Sequence record: ON528734
Strand: one strand, 5' to 3'
DNA length: 64,000 nt
Source of the DNA: Shigella phage ESh24
Shown here: positions 3,362 to 36,079 of the stretch, piece by piece
Numbering within the stretch: the first letter of the stretch is position 1
Layout: the number at the start of each line of letters is the position of its first letter
The notes under the pieces: model-generated
The model's database searches: none
Seen by the model: the letters and a program-made list of their open reading frames with translations, nothing else
Told to the model about the DNA's origin: nothing
Program-made: the position numbers and the translations under genes

Positions 3362-5166
3362 TATGCAATCCTTATCCAACGGTATACAGTAATAGACGGT
3401 TGAATATTACTAATATTAGCAGGAGGAGTATGTGAAGAGTTTGTTGTTGCATAATCTTCACGATATTTTGTATATATAGGACCAGTTTCATCTGGGTCAT
3501 ATTGGCAACCTCCAATAATAACCGATCCATTTTCGTCTTCAATTAAAACTCTTTCGTCGGTTTTAGTCGCAGGAAGATTTGCGTTTTCAAGTGTCACCGT
3601 TGTTGTTCCAACCGTTCCACCGGCAGTATGTGAAGGATTTCCGCTAGAATCTAAATCATTATTGTTTAAAGCAAAGTTTGGATCCGTAACATCATCATTC
3701 CATCCTACTAAAACTTGTCCTTTACCAAATAATTTCCATGAACCAAATCCCATATAAGTCACCGGATTATTTGGGTTTATAGCATTTTCATAAATTGAAC
3801 CAACAGGATAAATGCTGTCGAAAATAGATGATATTGAATTATACGTTCTAGTATAAGAATCAACTTTTTCAACATTTGGCCAACCGATTTTATCAAAATC
3901 TGTTAAGGCCACATCACCAGTAACTTCAGTAGATGATCCTTTACTAACATAACGGTCATCAGTCAATTCAATGATGTCATCTTTTTCTAAAAGAGTTCCT
4001 AAATCATTATTGAACCATGTTATAACGATTATATCACCTGATTCAAATTTTCTATCAAATAAAAGACTGATCGGTTTTCCATCTTCATATTCTATAGAAT
4101 AATCTGTGTTTGATTCTTTCCATTCACCGCCAAGAGATATACATCCTTCTTGCGTATCTGAATTAGCGCCTTCACATAAAAACAGAGGATATCCGGCTGT
4201 TCCAGCTTGTTGTTGTAAAATTCCATTAAAACGAACTTCAAGAGAGTTAGGATTAATAGGTTCACCAGGAATTAATCCAAAGGCAGAAAATGGAATTGAT
4301 TTCATCGTCGATAAATTAGTAACATAAATGCTTCCTTCTAAAGAAGTCTTTGATGTTAATTTTGAATCTAATACTTTTATTTGACGTCTTGTATATGAAC
4401 TTCTCCACTGCGATACACCATCCATAAATGTTTCAATTTGAACAGTGTCACCAACATTACAAGGCTGTCTTAATCTAATATTAAATCCATCAAGAGGAAT
4501 CAATTCTCCTTCATTTTCCCCAGGAGAGCCAAAGTCACTGTTTTCGCTAAATACATCACCGTAATACAATTCGTTACCACGATGTTTTACTCTGATGTTG
4601 TTGACATTATAACTAGTTCCATTAAAAACATCTAAAAAGTCTGTTTGTCCTTGAACTTCGACTAAAAATTCTTTACGAGCTACATTGCTAATGTCTGAAC
4701 TAATAATTTTGTCAATTTGTTTATTTTTGACATATTCCCAACGACCCGGAGCGCAATAAACTAGCTCTAAATCACTAAATTGAACGTTAATTTCAACCGA
4801 TGACGATGATCCTTTGATAGTATCACCAGAAGCGGCTACTAAAGTAACTGGATTAACATTCCATGTTGCAAATACATCCCTAGCTCTAATTACTTTATTA
4901 TAATCATTAACAGTTCCTTTAGGAAGTTGCAGTGTTACTCTTCCAGACGAAGTATTAATAGCGTATGATTTTCCCCATTCAGCTTTTAACGTTTGCCCAG
5001 ATGAAGCATTATAAGTTTTCCAGGCACCGGCTGAATATGGAACATTACCATCACCAAGTTCATAATAAAGCTCATCAAAGTTTTCATTTATTTTTATACC
5101 ACCTTTACGCAGGTAGTCACCGGTACCATCATCTACAACATTACCGATATTAATATTTTGTTTCAT
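3361..5166 (-). CDS. 10: baseplate wedge protein
   Basis: 601-aa minus ORF; size and synteny match T4 gp10 (602 aa). Confidence 0.9.
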
Positions 5167-6096: not shown

Positions 6097-7101
6097 TTAA
6101 AATGTAAACAGAATATTGATTTCTTCTGTTTGATCCATTGCCATGATAATGGGTGGCCTATTTTCCATATAAATCATTTCGCCCGAATGCCTCATTAAAT
6201 CTTCCGGATCATAGTAATCCTTTTCAGCTTTAACGTTTGGGTCATTTGGATGAACTTTAGCTTCAAGAGGATTCGTGATTATCGATATTTGTCTAAATCC
6301 TTTATTTCCTGGCAATGCAGCTTCAGGAAAATAAACTGAATCTAAATATGCTTTAAAACGGATAGTATTTGCCTTAACACGGTAAATTAATCCAAAATCG
6401 TCTTGTTGCCAAGTGAGATTATCTTCATACCCCCATCTAGTCGGGTCTTCTTTTAATTCCTCAGGCCAAGGAACTACGATATATTCATTCGTGCATCTGT
6501 TTATAGATACATCAGGCGGAATCTCAAAAAGATATTCCCATACATACCCATCTCCAGGTTCGATTGTTCCTTCAGCATCTCCTCGACCTTCAGGAGGAGT
6601 CATTGATCTAGCAGAAGGAGTCCATTTTCCACCTAACTTAAGGCATTCATCCTTATCAGTTAAAGATGCGATTGAACACATTCCGGTATCAGGAACATCT
6701 AAACAACGATATACTAACCAGCCTGCGCCTGATTCAGTAGCGTTGTAAGGAGCTGAGTTACACACTACAATATCGTTAATTCTAAATGTGTATGGATCCG
6801 GATATCTAGTATCTCCCCAATCTCTGCGAGGAATAACTGCATCAAGCATAGATGGAAGAACCTTCACGGTTCCCATCATATGAGTCCACATGTCAGTTAC
6901 ACCTAATACAGAATCGGTAGGATAAGGCGGGGCAAAGCCCGCCTCATTTTCATTTGATGACCACGGTTCTGATCTTCCAAATGTGATAAAGATAGTGTTT
7001 TTATCCGGACCACTTCCAATTGAATTATAAAAATTCAACATTTTTTCTGTTCTAAATTTTGAAGTAACTATCGCACGATAGATAACACTTGAATCATTCA
7101 T
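6097..7101 (-). CDS. 8: baseplate wedge protein
   Basis: 334-aa minus ORF, same length as T4 gp8; synteny. Confidence 0.9.
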   Translation of the reverse strand: MNDSSVIYRAIVTSKFRTEKMLNFYNSIGSGPDKNTIFITFGRSEPWSSNENEAGFAPPYPTDSVLGVTDMWTHMMGTVKVLPSMLDAVIPRRDWGDTRYPDPYTFRINDIVVCNSAPYNATESGAGWLVYRCLDVPDTGMCSIASLTDKDECLKLGGKWTPSARSMTPPEGRGDAEGTIEPGDGYVWEYLFEIPPDVSINRCTNEYIVVPWPEELKEDPTRWGYEDNLTWQQDDFGLIYRVKANTIRFKAYLDSVYFPEAALPGNKGFRQISIITNPLEAKVHPNDPNVKAEKDYYDPEDLMRHSGEMIYMENRPPIIMAMDQTEEINILFTF

Positions 7102-10100
7102 CTATTTTAACCTGTGTTGGATTTTCAGGGTCTCTTGGATTTCCTATATTATCTTTTAGACGTTTATTAACTAAATCTCTAAATTGCGCAAATGTTGTTC
7201 CAGATGCATCAAATAAAGGACTCATTAATTTACGTCGTTCAGATGGCAATTGACCTTGAAATATTGAATTATTATTTTCAGCATTATAGTCATCAGGAAG
7301 AGGATATTTTACACCAGCCATTGGGCCAGGCTCATAAATTGCTTCGCCTGTTACCGAATCATGCTCAATTTCACCAGTTGGAGTCAATTTAGCTACTCTA
7401 TCAGCATATTCAGTAGGCAATCCAGAATCCCATTTATAGTTTTTGTATTTATTAATTATAGTCTCTGTATGTTTAAGAGTTAAACCAACATTAATAAACA
7501 TTGTTAAAAGGGTAATTGCTATAAATCCAAATCCTACTGGATGAACAAAACGAATAACGTCAGATTTCCAGCGGGAAGAAGGTAAATTGGATTTAATTTT
7601 CATTACATAATATGATCTACTTCTATTAATATAGTCTATATTATTTTGAAGCAAGTCCTTTCCTTTAACCCCACGAATAATTTCGCCTTCAAAACTAGGA
7701 AGTCTTTCTGCTTTAACTTCTTGACCAGCAATTAATCGTCCCAAAAGATTATGAATAGTTACGGTCCATTGCAATTTACCATTAGAATAGCTTCTTTCTA
7801 TATAAGTAACATTACATCTTCCTGTAGCTGTATAAATCGTTTGTCCTACTAAGTCTTCAGTCAAAGAATCAGATTGAACGATTATATCATATTCAGTACC
7901 AGCCCCAGATTCAATTTCAATTTCAACCTCTTCATTATAAAGAACTTTAAAAAGAAATTTGTATGATGCTTCAATTCCTTTAGTAGAATAAAAATCATAG
8001 CTACGCGATTCGAAAAATCTTGCAACAGCATCACGTTTGTCAGCATTTAAATAAATGTTTCTTTTATATATCTCTGACCACAAATATTCCCACGCATGCT
8101 CTTCTCGTGGATATTTGTTACGAATTAAATTTCGTAAATTATTATACTGAGTTCCATATCCATCAGAAAGATACTGAATATATGCTTCGCAAAATGCCTC
8201 AAAATTCGAATCCTGTAACAAATAAGAATCAGGCATCATTGTGCCAATCAATGGTCTTAAATCAGGATCAGCTAATCCATGCTCTTCTTCCGGGGACCAA
8301 GGAGTTTCACGCTCTTGGTTTTGTAAAAATGCTTTTAAAAATATTCCAGTTGGCTTCCAAATTATTTCAACCGTGTCTCTCACCCGATAGTTAAAATCAT
8401 AGTAAGAAATTATTTCACCAGAAGACTTATAAAAAAGCATCCCAGATGCGTATTTTTTAAATCCCGTGAATTTAACATTTGGCATTACTATAGTACAATC
8501 GCCATCATCCCAGTATTCATGAACTAATCTATCTGGTGATGTTTCCGGAATATTTTCTATAACTTTAGTGTATTTTAAATCAGCATAAACTACTACAGCT
8601 CTATCAGAGTTGTTTATCCAACAGCGTGTGTTAGATTTTTTAGACCAGTTAAAGAATGGTTCTGCATAGTATTTCATCGGCTGAGGCGTAAAAGTTTCCC
8701 AATCAGATTTTTCATCTGCTATAAATGCCATCATATGATAATGCTTATCAGCTAACCATTCACGAGGAAATTCATATTTGACAGCACCAATTAACTGATA
8801 TTTTGCTGCAGTTTCAGGGTCATTAACAACATTATCACTTAAAAATTTAAAATTACTCGAAGACAGAGAAACTAATTTACCGTCAGTTGACATATTCGCA
8901 TATCCGGGTTGAATACGTCTTCTTTCTTCTTCGGTATTACCAAAAACTCTTTTCCACGTTTTTGTGTCATGATTTAAAACATATATTCCTTTATCAGCAG
9001 AATCAATTATTTTTGAAGTTCTCGGATTGGCATTTAATGTTTCAACTTCACCAATAATAAGAGCAAAAACTTTATCACCGATAGAATCCATTTTATAGCA
9101 TACTGCTTTAGGATTTCCGGTTATAGTCATTGTATCGGGCTCAAAAAGTCTTTCCGAATATGTTGGAGATAATGGATCAGAATCTATAGGTGCATTACTC
9201 GTTTTTATGTATCTAACTTTGTCTCTGGCGACAACGTAAATGTAATCATCGGTGCAAGTAATAGCTTCTGCAATGCGGTATACATTAGCTGGTAAAGTCG
9301 CATAAGTGGCAAAAATTTCTACATCAAATCCTAGATGCAATTGGTCACCAAGTTTAGCGAATGTTATATCCTGTGAACTAAATCTGACATCATCAGCTGA
9401 CCATCTAACATCAGTAGATTTACGGCCGTAGAAAATCTTGTCGTATCCTAGAACGTATGTTGTGTTTGCAGATTGGTAATATACTGTCTTAGATAAAGGA
9501 TATCCTACACGGTCATTGAAGAGCTTTACAGCTTTCCAAGTTTGTCCTTTATCATTGGATACTTTAACTACAGGTTGATAGCGCTCAAAAAGATATAGAA
9601 TTCCTTCTGATTCCATCAAATAAACACGGTTAATATCCTTACATACTTGCTGAATAGAACCTTGTATTTCATGATACTCATTTTCACCAATAATAAAATT
9701 ACTTATTGATGAAACATCAACATATGATGGGCTGAATTGGAACGATTCATTCATCAATGCAGCCATTATAGTGTCATTATTAAAATTGACATAATTAGAA
9801 TTGTTAAGAGTAAATTTTTCCTGAATGAATTTATTGGCTAATTGCATTTCAATCATGTTTTGAAATGTGTAAGCATTCGTAGCAAAAGTTTCAAACTCTT
9901 CTGTATAAACCCAATCAGATTGCTCAAAATCTTGTGCAGCTGTAGCTACTCTAATGATGTATGATGTTAGTGGATCAGCATCATCAAAAAAGAAACTATT
10001 ATTTGCTGTATATCCTAAATTAATCCAACGATATTGATCGCTCGGGAGATTTTCCCCCGAGTCTGTTTTTGTCTCAGCGATTTCTACAAAATAGTAGAAA

Positions 10101-32340: not shown

Positions 32341-32524
32341 TCCTAAAAACAAAGCAGTAATTATTCGTCAATGGGAACGCATTTGCCGTACTAAATGTCC
32401 AATTAATAGTCCACATGATGTAGATAAAGACTACATTGGAACATTCGTTGAATATACCTTTATTGATAAGAAAGGTCGTAAACAACATGTAGAAGAATAT
32501 TGCTTAAAGGTTACATGGTTATGA
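32312..32524 (+). CDS. small hypothetical protein
   Basis: 70 aa; RBS ggtgga; overlaps end of the previous gene in another frame. Confidence 0.4.
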   Translation: MKVHYPHPFDPKNKAVIIRQWERICRTKCPINSPHDVDKDYIGTFVEYTFIDKKGRKQHVEEYCLKVTWL

Positions 32525-32727
32525 GCCAAACTAATATTCTTAAAAATGCCCACTGTGAAAAGTGTAAGTGGCCGGTTGTTTTTGCTTTATGCAACGATGA
32601 AATGGCTTGTGATTTCGATTATTGGTGCTATTGTTCTAATAAAGGATGCATCAATCATAAAGGTGAAGGATTTTATTCAGGATTTTATCCTTATCCTGAT
32701 TTCGTTAAAGAAGGTAAACCAAAATGA
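32515..32727 (+). CDS. Cys-rich small protein (putative metal-binding)
   Basis: ~70 aa with 9 Cys (CEKCKW…CNDEMACDFDYWCYCSNKGC); six-frame start at 32500 is TTG, ATG at 32515/32521. Confidence 0.5.
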   Translation: MVMSQTNILKNAHCEKCKWPVVFALCNDEMACDFDYWCYCSNKGCINHKGEGFYSGFYPYPDFVKEGKPK

Positions 32728-32897
32728 ATAGTTTTGAGTTACAATACGAAGTGTTACGTGAGCTTGATAATTTAATTGAACTCGCTGTTAATAAAGGTTT
32801 TGCCATTGGAATCGGTCAAAAAGATACTGGTCATTTAACTATGGAAATATTTAAGCAAAAGCGAATTATTTTAAAACTCCTGGAAATTAATATATGA
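32724..32897 (+). CDS. small hypothetical protein
   Basis: 57 aa; ATGA overlaps on both sides. Confidence 0.4.
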   Translation: MNSFELQYEVLRELDNLIELAVNKGFAIGIGQKDTGHLTMEIFKQKRIILKLLEINI

Positions 32898-33079
32898 GTC
32901 TGAGTAAAGAACAAAAAGATAAATTGTTTGAGCTTATTCATGAACTTCTAGATGAGCATATAGAAGCAAACACCTTTTATGATGAATACGGCCCGCTATC
33001 TCCAGAACAGCAGGAAGAATTTGCTGATCGGTTTGATAAGAAAGAAAACGAATTAATAGCTTATGTGAATACGCTTTAA
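32894..33079 (+). CDS. small acidic helical protein
   Basis: 61 aa, MSLSKEQKDKLFELIHELLDEH…. Confidence 0.5.
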   Translation: MSLSKEQKDKLFELIHELLDEHIEANTFYDEYGPLSPEQQEEFADRFDKKENELIAYVNTL

Positions 33080-33088
33080 GAAGGTGAT

Positions 33089-33670
33089 ATGGCGAGTTTA
33101 ATTTTTACTTATGCAGCAATGAATGCTGGAAAATCTGCTTCTCTTTTGACTGCTGCACATAATTATAAAGAGCGTGGAATGAGTGTATTAGTTCTTAAGC
33201 CTGCTATTGATACTCGCGATTCTGTCTGTGAAGTCGTTTCTCGCATTGGAATTAAGCAGGAAGCGAATATTATTACAGATGATATGGACATTTTCGAATT
33301 CTATAAATGGGCTGAAGCACAAAAAGATATTCATTGCGTATTTGTAGATGAAGCTCAGTTTTTAAAAACTGAACAGGTGCACCAATTAAGCCGAATTGTT
33401 GATACATATAATGTTCCTGTTATGGCTTATGGATTAAGGACTGATTTCGCTGGAAAATTGTTTGAAGGTTCTAAAGAACTTTTAGCGATTGCAGATAAAC
33501 TTATTGAACTAAAGGCAGTTTGTCATTGCGGCAAAAAAGCGATTATGACAGCTCGATTAATGGAAGATGGAACACCAGTTAAAGAAGGTAATCAAATCTG
33601 TATTGGTGATGAAATTTATGTTTCTTTGTGTAGAAAACATTGGAATGAATTAACTAAAAAGCTTGGTTAG
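33089..33670 (+). CDS. tk: thymidine kinase
   Basis: 193 aa; P-loop AAMNAGKSASLL; C-terminal Zn ribbon cysteines; same length as T4 Tk. Confidence 0.93.
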   Translation: MASLIFTYAAMNAGKSASLLTAAHNYKERGMSVLVLKPAIDTRDSVCEVVSRIGIKQEANIITDDMDIFEFYKWAEAQKDIHCVFVDEAQFLKTEQVHQLSRIVDTYNVPVMAYGLRTDFAGKLFEGSKELLAIADKLIELKAVCHCGKKAIMTARLMEDGTPVKEGNQICIGDEIYVSLCRKHWNELTKKLG

Positions 33671-33712
33671 TGCAAAAGTTATAAATAGGTTTATCTAACT
33701 AAAGGGGTATAT

Positions 33713-33925
33713 ATGCTACAATTAACTGAAAAGCAACTTCGCAATCTTACTGTGCTTCAATTAGATGAAATTCGTAGGGAAGTTGGAAATATCATTTCAG
33801 CTTTGCGTCGAGAAGTATCACTCAACCAATCTCCGGCAGACTATACTAGATTGCGAAATTTTGAAAAATACCTTGATAAAGTTAAGGCCGTGCATCGGCA
33901 TAAAGTAAATACAGGACAAAAATGA
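33713..33925 (+). CDS. hypothetical protein
   Basis: 70-aa ORF, RBS aaagggg. Confidence 0.5.
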
Positions 33926-33937
33926 TAGGAGGCCTTT

Positions 33938-34231
33938 ATGGCCTTAAAAGCAACGGCACTATTTGCCATGCTAGGATTGTCATTTGTTTTATCTCCACCA
34001 ATTGAAGCGAATGTCGATCCTCATTTTGATAAATTTATGGAATCTGGTATTAGGCACGTTTATATGCTTTTTGAAAATAAAAGCGTAGAATCGTCTGAAC
34101 AATTCTATAGTTTTATGAGAACGACCTATAAAAATGACCCGTGCTCTTCTGATTTTGAATGTATAGAACGAGGCGCGGAGATGGCACAATCATACGCTAG
34201 AATTATGAACATTAAATTGGAGACTGAATGA
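33938..34231 (+). CDS. rI: lysis-inhibition regulator (antiholin) RI
   Basis: 97 aa with signal-anchor MALKATALFAMLGLSFVLS; matches T4 RI as I recall it. Confidence 0.85.
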   Translation: MALKATALFAMLGLSFVLSPPIEANVDPHFDKFMESGIRHVYMLFENKSVESSEQFYSFMRTTYKNDPCSSDFECIERGAEMAQSYARIMNIKLETE

Positions 34232-34614
34232 AATTCAGCGACTTTTCACAAAGTGGAAAACCTTCAAAGGCAGATGAATACTTAGGTTTATTAATGGCTG
34301 CACAAGCTTATTTTCATTCTGCACATTTTGAAACTAAAAGTTATGCTAGACACAAAGCATACGATTTTATTTTTTCTGAGTTACCAGATTTGATTGACAA
34401 ATTTGGTGAGCAATATTTGGGGTACTCTGGTAGAAAATACACACCTTCAATTCCAGATGCCAGTAAACTTCCTACCGACACAATTAAAATGATTGATCGC
34501 ATACTAGACCAATCTGACAGCATTTATAAAGAAATGCCTCCAGCCATCCAAAGCACGATAGATGATATTACTGGAATGTTTTACCAGAGTAAGTATCTTC
34601 TTTCCCTCGAATAA
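34228..34614 (+). CDS. hypothetical protein (rI-adjacent)
   Basis: 128-aa ORF, start overlaps rI stop; followed by a terminator. Confidence 0.6.
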
Positions 34615-34618
34615 CATT

Positions 34619-34642
34619 AGTCTCCTTCGGGAGACTTTTTTC
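34619..34642 (+). terminator. intrinsic terminator
   Basis: agtctcc-ttcg-ggagact hairpin followed by TTTTTT. Confidence 0.7.
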
Positions 34643-34651
34643 ATTTTACCG

Positions 34652-34682
34652 GTTTACTTTTCGTTTGAGCCGTGGTACTATA
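34652..34682 (+). promoter_or_regulatory. early-type promoter (GTTTAC … TGGTACTATA) with conserved leader
   Basis: Shares the tggtactatacaac block with promoters at 23036, 38667 and 40106. Confidence 0.5.
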
Positions 34683-34709
34683 CAACCATCGGATAAAGAG
34701 GAGAACATC

Positions 34710-34898
34710 ATGAAAATTGAAGCACTCAATCAAGAAGGAAATATTTACGTCATCATTAATGGTGATTTTTTCGTCGACATGGATGAAGTTACTAGTGAAG
34801 AACTTGTAGAACTTCTTAAGAAACGTTATAATATGTGTGATGAAGTTGCAACTCACATGGCGTGTGCAATATTCTCTCTTTCATATGTGGTGGAATAA
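34710..34898 (+). CDS. small hypothetical protein
   Basis: 62 aa from ATG 34710 (RBS aagaggagaac). Confidence 0.55.
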
Positions 34899-35101
34899 TG
34901 ATTAGTATAGAGCAAGCAGATAAAATCAAGGAATTAGTGGCTTCAATTCGTAAAGCAGATGAGGAACTTAGTGACTTTGCTTGGTTTTCGTCAGGCATTG
35001 CAAATAAAGGTATTGATGAACTTGAAACTAAAGTTGATAATGCTTTAGAAGCGTTAGATATGTTTCTTGATGAAATTATCGATCATAATACGAGAGTTTA
35101 A
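34898..35101 (+). CDS. small acidic helical protein (tandem family)
   Basis: 67 aa from ATG 34898. Confidence 0.5.
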   Translation: MISIEQADKIKELVASIRKADEELSDFAWFSSGIANKGIDELETKVDNALEALDMFLDEIIDHNTRV

Positions 35102-35103
35102 GT

Positions 35104-35298
35104 ATGCTAACACGCGAACAGTTTGAAAAAATCATTAAATTAGCACGTGATATTGAAATAGATTCATACCAATTAGCAGTTGAGCATTGTGAAGGATATT
35201 CATACGACGGTATAGAAACAGCTAAAAAGGATTTGGATAAATCTAAAGCTAAGTTAGTTCAATATCTTGAAATGATTAGGTGGAATAATGAAAACTGA
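35104..35298 (+). CDS. small acidic helical protein (tandem family)
   Basis: 64 aa, MLTREQFEKIIKLARDIEID…. Confidence 0.5.
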   Translation: MLTREQFEKIIKLARDIEIDSYQLAVEHCEGYSYDGIETAKKDLDKSKAKLVQYLEMIRWNNEN

Positions 35299-35461
35299 AA
35301 AGCAGATGCTTTTAATGAAACTAATTGAAGAATATGCTAACGCAGTTTCTGACTATGAATGTTCTTCTCGGGAAAGAGGTACAGCTTTCGCCAAAGAAGA
35401 AATGAAAATCATGGTTGATGCTCATACAAAGCTTCAAAATTTTATTGAAAACGTCATTTAA
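35288..35461 (+). CDS. small acidic helical protein (tandem family)
   Basis: 57 aa, MKTEKQMLLMKLIEEYANAV…. Confidence 0.45.
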   Translation: MKTEKQMLLMKLIEEYANAVSDYECSSRERGTAFAKEEMKIMVDAHTKLQNFIENVI

Positions 35462-35463
35462 TG

Positions 35464-35496
35464 GTTTACAAGTTGGCAAGGTTATGGTATAGTAAT
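35464..35496 (+). promoter_or_regulatory. early-type promoter (GTTTACA … TGGTATAGTAAT)
   Basis: -35/-10-like elements upstream of a 34-codon leader ORF (35522-35626) and gene 35626. Confidence 0.45.
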
Positions 35497-35625
35497 CTTG
35501 TCAACTGTTAAGGAGAAGAGAATGAAAGTTTTGTTTGTTGTGTATGTAATGATTCAATATAATCACCCAATGTTTACTTATAATCTGGTGAACAACATTA
35601 TTGATATTATTCAAAGGAGTATGTA

Positions 35626-35811
35626 ATGACAAGTGAGCAGGCTTTTAAATTAAGAGAATTAATTGAGACGTATAGTAAAGCTGTTCATACATCAACAATT
35701 ATTGATGAATCAGCTTTCTCCGGACATGCCAACAAGATTAAATACAAAACTCTTATGGAAGAAGCTAAAGTAAATCTTGATTCTTATATTGAAACTTTAA
35801 TTGGTGAATAA
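35626..35811 (+). CDS. small acidic helical protein (tandem family)
   Basis: 61 aa, MTSEQAFKLRELIETYSKAV…. Confidence 0.5.
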   Translation: MTSEQAFKLRELIETYSKAVHTSTIIDESAFSGHANKIKYKTLMEEAKVNLDSYIETLIGE

Positions 35812-35812
35812 C

Positions 35813-36079
35813 ATGGGCTTTCCTAAATTAGAAGTAGGTGATTTGGTCTTAACAAAATTATGGAATGATGTTCAATCAGTAGAAATCTGTCAATATCGTG
35901 GAGCAACAGGTAATTTGATGTACACGATTTATAATCCAGAAATTTTATTAGAGTGTCATTTGGAACGCTTTATAAAAGACACCGATAGTATGCCGTATAG
36001 TGTATCGATTGTACGTAAATCTGATACAAAGGAATACTCTAAAATTTTAGAACAAATCAGCGCAAATAAAAAGGATTAA
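35813..36079 (+). CDS. hypothetical protein
   Basis: 88 aa from ATG 35813; the six-frame start at 35801 is TTG. Confidence 0.5.
   Translation: MGFPKLEVGDLVLTKLWNDVQSVEICQYRGATGNLMYTIYNPEILLECHLERFIKDTDSMPYSVSIVRKSDTKEYSKILEQISANKKD

Follow-up and report, generated by a model that had tools for sequence, protein, structure and literature searches.

Five small genes around tk and rI

We analysed a 64,000-nt stretch of Shigella phage ESh24 (ON528734), hereafter the window, which comes from a Tequatrovirus and is 97.8% identical to Shigella phage Sf23. A sequence-only reading had pointed to five similar small ORFs around tk and rI, and all five are present on the + strand, at 57-67 aa and with the N-termini it had quoted (Table 1). 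It had also grouped four of them into a tandem array; only three are contiguous (34898-35461), and a 60-nt spacer and mobD.2 come before the fourth.

Table 1 Features of the tk to mobD.2 region of the window, with the Pfam and PHROG matches of the five ORFs
Feature	Position	Strand	Description	PF24219 match	PHROG match
DUF7438 paralogue 1	32894..33079	+	61 aa, net charge -10; T4 Tk.2 orthologue	E 3.2e-19, 69.5 bits	phrog_653, E 1.9e-26
Terminator-like hairpin with T-run, 3' of rI.-1	34619..34636	+	consensus scan		
DUF7438 paralogue 2	34898..35101	+	67 aa from ATG, net charge -9; T4 MobD.4 orthologue	E 2.3e-15, 57.1 bits	phrog_653, E 2.6e-22
DUF7438 paralogue 3	35104..35298	+	64 aa; T4 MobD.3 orthologue, 95% identity	E 2.6e-17, 63.4 bits	phrog_653, E 2.3e-25
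DUF7438 paralogue 4	35288..35461	+	57 aa; intact form of T4 mobD.2a	E 8.6e-15, 55.3 bits	phrog_2758, E 5.9e-35
Sigma-70-type promoter-like site	35465..35493	+	TTTACA, 17 nt, TATAGT, with TG before TATAGT; consensus match only		
mobD.2	35522-35626		34 aa, unrelated to DUF7438; between paralogues 4 and 5		
DUF7438 paralogue 5	35626..35811	+	61 aa; no T4 counterpart	E 1.4e-15, 57.8 bits	phrog_4859, E 5e-39

The genes belong to early operons of a T4-type phage, where they are closely packed and translationally coupled. The first paralogue and the ORF before it share a start-stop overlap (ATGA), and the paralogue ends 9 nt upstream of tk; the start of the second overlaps the mobD.5 stop (TAATG), and the fourth overlaps mobD.3 by 11 nt. 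From an alternative GTG start at 34862, the second paralogue would reach 79 aa. The terminator-like hairpin, found at the same place as an annotated terminator in phage e11/2, divides the region into a tk-rI transcription unit and the mobD.5-mobD.4-mobD.3-mobD.2a block, and a T4 mobD.5 promoter has been reported (PMC1702504). The promoter-like site, which matches 10 of 12 consensus positions in our scan, lies upstream of mobD.2 and the fifth paralogue. Regulation by RegB (GGAG) was considered and rejected: the window shows no enrichment of GGAG, and the mobD.5 transcript of T4 has been reported as RegB-insensitive (PMC1702504).

Four of the five ORFs are counterparts of named T4 ORFs (54-95% identity), within the same family and with no difference in kind. 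The neighbour of tk at 32894 is the orthologue of T4 tk.2, not tk.1, and represents a 'window-type' allele (54% identity to T4 Tk.2, blastp 2.8e-21). The 34898 ORF is 73% identical to T4 MobD.4 and, in the allele alignment, proves to be a long-loop allele with seven more residues than that of T4. Relative to the T4 reference, this phage thus carries a long-loop mobD.4 and a divergent tk.2; it is also without tk.1, has one extra member at 35626 and keeps mobD.2a intact. DNA comparison with the window places a 1-nt deletion in the T4 reference mobD.2a, which leaves only 38 aa.

The five ORFs are paralogues of DUF7438

All five ORFs match Pfam PF24219 (DUF7438; a 57-position model with a gathering threshold of 25 bits) end to end, covering positions 1-56/57 at 55-70 bits and E 3e-19 to 9e-15, and no match was seen in four small neighbouring control ORFs (32724, rI.1, mobD.5 and the tudor ORF). 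Compared by hhalign, the five orthologue groups are joined into a single graph by full-length alignments (probability 46-96.5%, E 2e-4 to 9e-10); the six controls reached at most 1% probability. An HMM built from the family picked just these five among the 926 ORFs of the window at E <= 10, and searches with family HMMs brought up no other member, either in the window or elsewhere in a near-identical genome. Alignments and column statistics further reveal two motifs conserved across DUF7438 single-domain proteins of ~55-67 aa, M-[ILS]-[TS]-x-E-Q at the N terminus and L-x-x-[YF]-[LIV]-x-x-[LI] at the C terminus. PHROGs splits the family three ways and Pfam unites it; the three PHROGs cross-match one another, with the 35626 ORF also matching phrog_653 and phrog_2758. 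Pairwise similarities, drawn as a graph, have this ORF as their hub.

Direct pairwise comparison bore the relationship out only in part. Smith-Waterman scores with shuffling ranged from z = 0.4 to 7.2 and were weak for many pairs, with only 4 of 10 above z = 3.9, and it is the profile tests that decide. Several raw comparisons are non-significant (z 0.4-1.3), as would be seen if short, helical, compositionally similar ORFs resembled one another by chance without homology. That reading is barely conceivable: it is refuted by the full-length Pfam matches, which similar-sized neighbours lack, by the selectivity of the family HMM and by the hhalign graph with its near-zero controls. On these sequence comparisons, the five ORFs are true paralogues of DUF7438, and the earlier proposal of a paralogue family is borne out by the Pfam, PHROG and hhalign results. 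DUF7438 was already catalogued, and with it the paralogy that we confirm here; the finding is in this sense a rediscovery.

Distribution and allelic variation among phages

Across 1.84 billion (1.84e9) representatives, we found 33 DUF7438 clusters at E <= 1e-3, a count that includes two long multi-stretch matches taken as false positives and several fragments or chimeric ORFs. The domain was seen solely in phage sequences; rows labelled E. coli or Shigella were roughly 166-168 kb contigs or near-identical to phage proteins and were taken as phage. Copy number runs from 1 to 6 and differs between close relatives, and one copy usually adjoins tk. A member ends within ~10 nt of tk, on its upstream side, in Tequatrovirus, Mosigvirus, Gelderlandvirus, Yersinia phage P8, Roskildevirus, Jiaodavirus and Edwardsiella phages; in Krischvirus, Pseudotevenvirus and Biquartavirus, tk is present and no member was detected beside it. 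Members also lie among early genes in an N4-like contig and in a contig with PolA and SNF2 genes, both outside the T4-like phages.

Closely related genomes differ in which members they hold and in what form. Within a sample of 10 Tequatroviruses, the 35626-type gene and tk.1 were each present in 5. MobD.4 occurs as long-loop and short-loop alleles across phages, and Tk.2 as two alleles that are ~52% identical. Frameshifted copies also occur, namely mobD.2a in the T4 reference and tk.2 in ECML-363.

Purifying selection on old paralogues

The paralogues are only 17-31% identical among themselves, and no DNA-level similarity was found between them beyond a common 13-nt start context. Recent duplication or repeat-driven unequal crossing-over was rejected, as there are no DNA-level repeats between paralogues. 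Crude Nei-Gojobori estimates put dN/dS at 0.06-0.32 overall, at 0.03-0.13 in the N-terminal helix and at 0.08-0.72 in the middle segment; no gene or segment reaches 1. On these crude estimates we make no claim of positive selection in the loop, and the values give no evidence of an arms race. The sequence-only reading had called the family diversifying. This holds in that the paralogues are old and divergent, the alleles differ by loop indels and copy number varies; it does not extend to a dN/dS above 1. Judged from substitution patterns, purifying selection that is relaxed in the loop, together with exchange of alleles, seems a better description than positive selection.

DUF7438 proteins are predicted helical hairpins

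AF2 models the 34898 protein as an antiparallel two-helix hairpin (H4-30/H36-66, pLDDT 91.2) and the 35626 protein in the same way (H3-28/H34-60, pLDDT 86), and each of the five proteins is predicted to be a ~7-kDa hairpin of this type. Foldseek searches of the PDB with the two models returned generic helical hairpins only (best E 0.37 and 0.48), so the fold carries no functional information. Against BFVD, the best matches (E 9e-3) were family members, and the top neighbours were uncharacterised ~60-aa proteins of T4-like phages with TM-scores of 0.89-0.94. A sequence search of solved structures yielded noise and no relative, NCBIfam gave no meaningful match, and PADLOC models, which describe host defence proteins and not phage counter-defence, gave only noise (E 0.008, 12.5 bits, a methyltransferase model). 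Reading the five sequences by eye, we saw no evident signal peptide, transmembrane segment or metal-binding motif.

Conservation in DUF7438 falls on hydrophobic positions, not on charged ones. Those at the hairpin's open end make up a conserved and unusually wide hydrophobic a/d/e face (positions 10, 11, 13, 14 and 17 together with 51, 54, 55, 58 and 59), which is at most suggestive of a four-helix-bundle homodimer. Net charge across the five proteins runs from -2 to -10, which speaks against nucleic-acid binding. The description of the family as acidic fits the two members at -10 and -9; the other three carry just -2 to -3.

Two known proteins offer points of comparison. Rop/ROM, the ColE1 repressor of primer, is 63 aa long and folds as a helical hairpin, two copies of which form a four-helix bundle. 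DUF7438 proteins are similar in size, share its antiparallel two-helix topology (TM-score ~0.85, rmsd 1.0-1.3 over 57 residues) and have a heptad-like hydrophobic pattern that includes small residues at some core positions. However, there is no significant homology (Foldseek E 1.4-1.6, and no match in the solved-structure sequence search), and DUF7438 is acidic rather than RNA-binding in character. Aqs1 of Pseudomonas phage DMS3 is a small helical-hairpin early protein that inhibits host LasR and PilB. We use it as a working analogy only: its structure (6v7w) is among the structural matches (TMq 0.65 and 0.53), but the match is non-significant (E 3.5 and 1.4) and without sequence similarity; the resemblance is one of kind.

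A putative role in host takeover or counter-defence

Although no virulent phage has been studied better than T4, roughly half of its genes are without known function, and most of these are small early ORFs. Treating tk.1, tk.2, mobD.4, mobD.3, mobD.2a and the 35626-type gene as one family turns six unknowns into one question. In T4, MobD.3 and MobD.4 are classed as early RNA and early protein, and Tk.1 and Tk.2 as early RNA and middle protein, the same class as Tk (PMC9697503 supplement). Knockdown of tk.1, tk.2, mobD.2a, mobD.3 and mobD.4 was scored 'Not Fit' for each gene by CRISPRi-ART (PMC11879866 supplement), and the nrdC.11-mobD.3 block is dispensable and can be lost (PMC9825161). The T4 members are individually dispensable on laboratory E. 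coli. A silent knockdown would be expected just as well from redundancy, from a role confined to certain hosts or from a marginal function; single knockdowns may be silent because the paralogues may be redundant. Our search of the literature on DUF7438, on the mobD.x/tk.x names and on helical-hairpin phage proteins found no functional study of these genes.

Our best guess, a tentative one, is that the hairpins bind proteins as small accessory factors, needed conditionally, in host takeover or counter-defence. The 'small regulators or inhibitors' of the sequence-only reading are a plausible guess at their putative role, because the hairpins are early, cytoplasmic, dispensable and phage-only. 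Small protein-binding modules of this kind would act stoichiometrically, binding host proteins and thereby inhibiting or modulating them. The hydrophobic open-end face may pair two hairpins into a four-helix bundle or dock onto a partner, and the variable loop with its flanking surface could make specificity differ from one paralogue or allele to the next. A more elaborate version, which we regard as somewhat doubtful, makes DUF7438 a modular toolkit for inhibiting host factors or the immune system; the open end would be the common scaffold or dimer interface, and the target would depend on the indel-rich loop and the helix surface next to it. In such a toolkit, turnover of copies and alleles between near-identical T4-type phages would be adaptation to host strains or defence repertoires, and hetero-dimers among paralogues could widen specificity. 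Should the proteins turn out to block host factors or defences, the family would count as a small scaffold new to the counter-defence repertoire of phages.

The position of one copy almost always directly upstream of tk, translationally coupled and ending within ~10 nt of its start in all seven phage groups listed above, suggests another role, as partners or regulators of the phage's own proteins, notably thymidine kinase or nucleotide metabolism; the common 'early RNA, middle protein' class of T4 Tk.1, Tk.2 and Tk points the same way. We consider this unlikely. A terminator sets the mobD-block copies apart in a transcription unit of their own, none of the called genes matches a TK Pfam model in the loci fetched from the N4-like and PolA/SNF2 contigs, and three genera have tk without a detectable adjoining member. 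Adjacency in related phages may, moreover, be inherited gene order.

We give still less credence to the idea that the ORFs are decaying or functionless filler, selfish or neutral passengers of a hyperplastic region. Knockdown without fitness effect, loss of the region, the two frameshifted copies and presence or absence that differs among genomes would all fit, but dN/dS values far below 1, very strongly constrained helices, retention across several Tevenvirinae genera with reach into other phage types and detection of the proteins in infected cells argue against it. Least probable of these alternatives are acidic nucleic-acid mimics or Rop-like nucleic-acid binders, whose targets would be DNA- or RNA-binding host proteins. 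The two very acidic members and the presence of Rop-type hairpins among the best structural matches speak for such a function; against it stand the net charge of just -2 to -3 on the other three members, Foldseek E values above 1 with no sequence relationship to Rop, and the hydrophobic character of the conserved positions.

Database labels

Two functional labels attached to these proteins were examined and rejected as artefacts of annotation. For molybdopterin-guanine dinucleotide biosynthesis (RefSeq), we found no MobA or MobB match in Pfam, NCBIfam or the structure searches, and proteins of 57-67 aa are too small for a MobA nucleotidyltransferase or MobB P-loop domain. In T4, 'MobD' denotes a mobile homing endonuclease, and the molybdopterin label is therefore a name collision. 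The 'helicase loader' label of PHROG 4859 finds no Pfam or NCBIfam match at E <= 1 other than DUF7438, and no solved-structure match; the genuine gp59 homologue is another gene, of 217 aa, which the Sf23 annotation places at 68129-68782.

A paralogue family already recorded in Pfam

The five small ORFs scattered around tk and rI (ORFs 1–5; table below) are a genuine paralogue family of two-helix hairpin proteins that is early, expressed and constrained yet dispensable. The family is phage-restricted and its copy number varies. It is already known, because Pfam DUF7438 (PF24219) and the T4 tk.x and mobD.x ORFs record it. The sequence-only reading had the sizes, coordinates and N-termini of the five ORFs right when compared with our ORF list, and its claim of a paralogue family was borne out by Pfam, PHROGs and hhalign.

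All five ORFs matched PF24219 across the whole 57-position model (cut-off 25 bits), and the neighbouring small ORFs (32724, rI.1, mobD.5 and tudor) gave no match to it. PHROGs placed three ORFs in phrog_653 and one each in phrog_2758 and phrog_4859, with cross-hits among these. Using orthologue-group alignments made from 119 database relatives, hhalign joined the five groups by full-length, colinear alignments: 34898 with 35104 at 96.5% (E 9e-10), 32894 with 35104 and 34898 with 35626 at 86.8% (E 4e-6), 35288 with 35626 at 55.7% and 35104 with 35626 at 46%; six control ORFs reached at most 1%. Pairwise Smith-Waterman scores, judged against 300 shuffles, supported similarity for four pairs, namely 35626 against 34898 (z 7.2), 35288 (6.4) and 32894 (5.1), and 34898 against 35104 (3.9); the remaining pairs, at z 0.4-2.8, resembled some control pairs. 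Of the window's 926 six-frame ORFs, the family HMM retrieved precisely these five at E <= 10, and it found no further member in bases 1-135000 of Sf23. The window and this Sf23 segment together amount to one whole genome of this type, if both genomes are colinear.

Features of the tk–mobD region, with gene order read from the T4 and ECML-363 annotations combined with the ORF list (dN/dS, pooled Nei-Gojobori, by orthologue group)
Feature	Position	Strand	Remark	PF24219 E-value	dN/dS
vs.1, vs, tk.4, tk.3		+	first in mapped series
Cys-rich ORF	32500-32727	+
57-aa ORF	32724-32897	+
ORF 1 (tk.2)	32894-33079	+		3.2e-19	0.32
tk	33089-33670	+	then rI.1, rI		0.02
rI.-1	34228-34614	+			0.02
Terminator-like hairpin	34619-34636		after rI.-1
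mobD.5	34710-34898	+			0.03
ORF 2 (mobD.4)	34898-35101	+		2.3e-15	0.26
ORF 3 (mobD.3)	35104-35298	+		2.6e-17	0.12
ORF 4 (mobD.2a)	35288-35461	+		8.6e-15	0.06
Promoter-like site	35465-35493		inside 60-nt spacer after ORF 4
mobD.2	35522-35626	+	34 aa
ORF 5 (35626-type)	35626-35811	+		1.4e-15	0.21
Phage_tudor ORF	35813-36079	+	88 aa, directly 3' of ORF 5; PF24144, E 8e-40; then mobD.1

Orthology and distribution

ORF 1 is the orthologue of T4 Tk.2 (54% identity); assignment to Tk.1 was rejected, and the family's sixth and more divergent member, T4 Tk.1, is absent from the window. ORF 2 is MobD.4 (73% identity, with a loop 7 residues longer), ORF 3 is MobD.3 (95%) and ORF 4 is an intact, 57-aa mobD.2a, also intact in RB59, T2, wV7 and others. 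In the T4 reference (NC_000866, 3997-4178, minus strand), a 1-nt deletion cuts mobD.2a to 38 aa, with the C-terminal half still readable in a different frame. ORF 5 has no T4 counterpart. Two wrong labels are spreading through public records of the genes at 34898-35811, both artefacts unsupported by any search: 'molybdopterin-guanine dinucleotide biosynthesis protein MobD' on MobD.x ORFs, a mix-up with the name of the mobile endonuclease mobD of T4, and 'helicase loader' on the 35626-type ORF, via phrog_4859.

Searched exhaustively by profile, a set of 1.84 billion representative proteins yielded no more than 33 clusters with E <= 1e-3. The majority hold proteins of ~53-67 aa; a few others consist of fragments or chimeric ORFs, and the two long, multi-stretch matches are presumed false positives. 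Around tk, Mosigvirus and Roskildevirus carry three members, Gelderlandvirus and Yersinia phage P8 two, Edwardsiella phages one or two, Jiaodavirus one, and Krischvirus, Pseudotevenvirus and Biquartavirus none.

Turnover and alleles

Of the ten Tequatroviruses compared, five had tk.1 and five had the 35626-type gene, and all six orthologue groups occurred together in wV7 and e11/2. Tk.2 has two alleles, ~52% identical with dS ~0.6 between them: the T4-type allele always accompanies tk.1 (T4, wV7, T2, RB59, e11/2), and the version found in the window occurs without it (window, Sf25, Sf21, CHD94UKE2). This perfect segregation, together with the dS, is more suggestive of a cassette swapped by recombination than of divergence in situ. 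MobD.4 likewise has long-loop, short-loop and intermediate alleles. In ECML-363, one additional A within an A-run (AAAAAGA to AAAAAAGA) shifts the frame of the unannotated tk.2 orthologue (1695-1880) by +1 at codon 9; the gene may be a true pseudogene, or the added base a sequencing error in the homopolymer.

The only DNA similarity between paralogues is a 13-nt stretch around the translation start, GGTGGAATAATGA, identical in mobD.4 (34889-34901) and mobD.2a (35279-35291), whose ribosome-binding site is supplied by the upstream gene's last codons. The paralogues have no DNA-level repeats in common, so the duplications are old. The proposal that the family is diversifying held in part: turnover and alleles agree with it; dN/dS, which exceeded 1 in no segment, speaks against it.

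Predicted fold and possible roles

AlphaFold2, run with family alignments, predicted one and the same fold, an antiparallel two-helix hairpin, for two members: the 35626 protein (H3-28/H34-60, pLDDT 86, pTM 0.70) and the MobD.4-type protein (H4-30/H36-66, pLDDT 91, pTM 0.75). Foldseek found nothing significant in the PDB for either model (best E 0.37 and 0.48), its matches being generic hairpins (Rop, DUF683, Fap1, Mediator subunits, Aqs1), and the top BFVD matches, ~60-aa uncharacterised proteins of T4-like phages, are the DUF7438 family itself. Solved-structure sequence search, PADLOC and NCBIfam gave only noise. Over 38 diverse members, two leucines are near-invariant and helix 1 begins with a T/S-x-E-Q motif, probably a helix cap. 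Large hydrophobics at positions 10, 11, 13, 14, 17 and 51, 54, 55, 58, 59 line the hairpin's open end, and core positions closer to the loop are small (Ala/Ser). Two helices do not require so broad a hydrophobic face, and its width suggests that the proteins dimerise or dock onto a partner.

T4 MobD.3 and MobD.4 belong to the early RNA and early protein classes, and Tk.1 and Tk.2 to the early RNA and middle protein classes (PMC9697503 supplement); T4 has a mobD.5 promoter, with a transcript insensitive to RegB (PMC1702504). Our literature search found no mention of DUF7438 and no function given to T4 tk.x/mobD.x family genes. We tentatively propose that the proteins may serve host takeover or counter-defence as small accessory factors that bind other proteins, perhaps in the form of four-helix-bundle dimers, with surfaces specific to each paralogue.

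With profile methods taken as decisive for homology, chance as the source of the similarity is refuted and close to inconceivable. One family copy nearly always ends at the start of tk, and distant members lie among small early-type genes on two contigs, one N4-like and one with genes for PolA and SNF2. A Tk-linked role of the hairpins is unlikely. CRISPRi-ART knockdown of tk.1, tk.2, mobD.2a, mobD.3 and mobD.4 carried no fitness cost (all 'Not Fit'; PMC11879866 supplement), and a genome-reduced T4 lost the nrdC.11-mobD.3 block (PMC9825161); segment dN/dS is 0.03-0.13 in the first 20 codons and 0.08-0.72 in the middle. That the ORFs are near-neutral filler is very unlikely. Net charges of ORFs 1–5 are, in order, -10, -9, -3, -2 and -3, and nucleic-acid mimicry or binding is hardly credible.

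Genomic neighbourhood

The phage is a T4-type myovirus (Tequatrovirus), and the window runs in reverse of the standard T4 map. Starts and stops of adjacent genes abut or overlap (ATGA, TAATG, an 11-nt overlap), as is usual in T4 early operons. Region 32700-36100 matches 557 phage records, with 97.8% identity to Shigella phage Sf23 and Escherichia phage ECML-363. Between tk.3 and the 57-aa ORF lies a Cys-rich ORF of RB32ORF111c type (C-x2-C ... C-x-C ... C-x5-C-x-C ... C), without counterpart in the T4 reference, whose product may be a small zinc-binding protein. The Phage_tudor ORF is found in only 4 of 10 sampled Tequatroviruses and is missing from T4.

Upstream of regB, in the corresponding early region, related phages AP014714/AP014715 (3459-3736) and a third related locus (3434-3700) have a gene for an Acb2_Tad1_hairpin (PF24729) protein. 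This is a known anti-CBASS/Thoeris sponge fold, so the neighbourhood carries counter-defence genes in those relatives. Krischvirus phage vB_EcoM_G2248 has a 714-aa ORF (6376-8520) inserted after rI.-1, at a site that in the MIZ4 relative is just a gap between genes; this is a further sign that the region is a hotspot of gene gain and loss.
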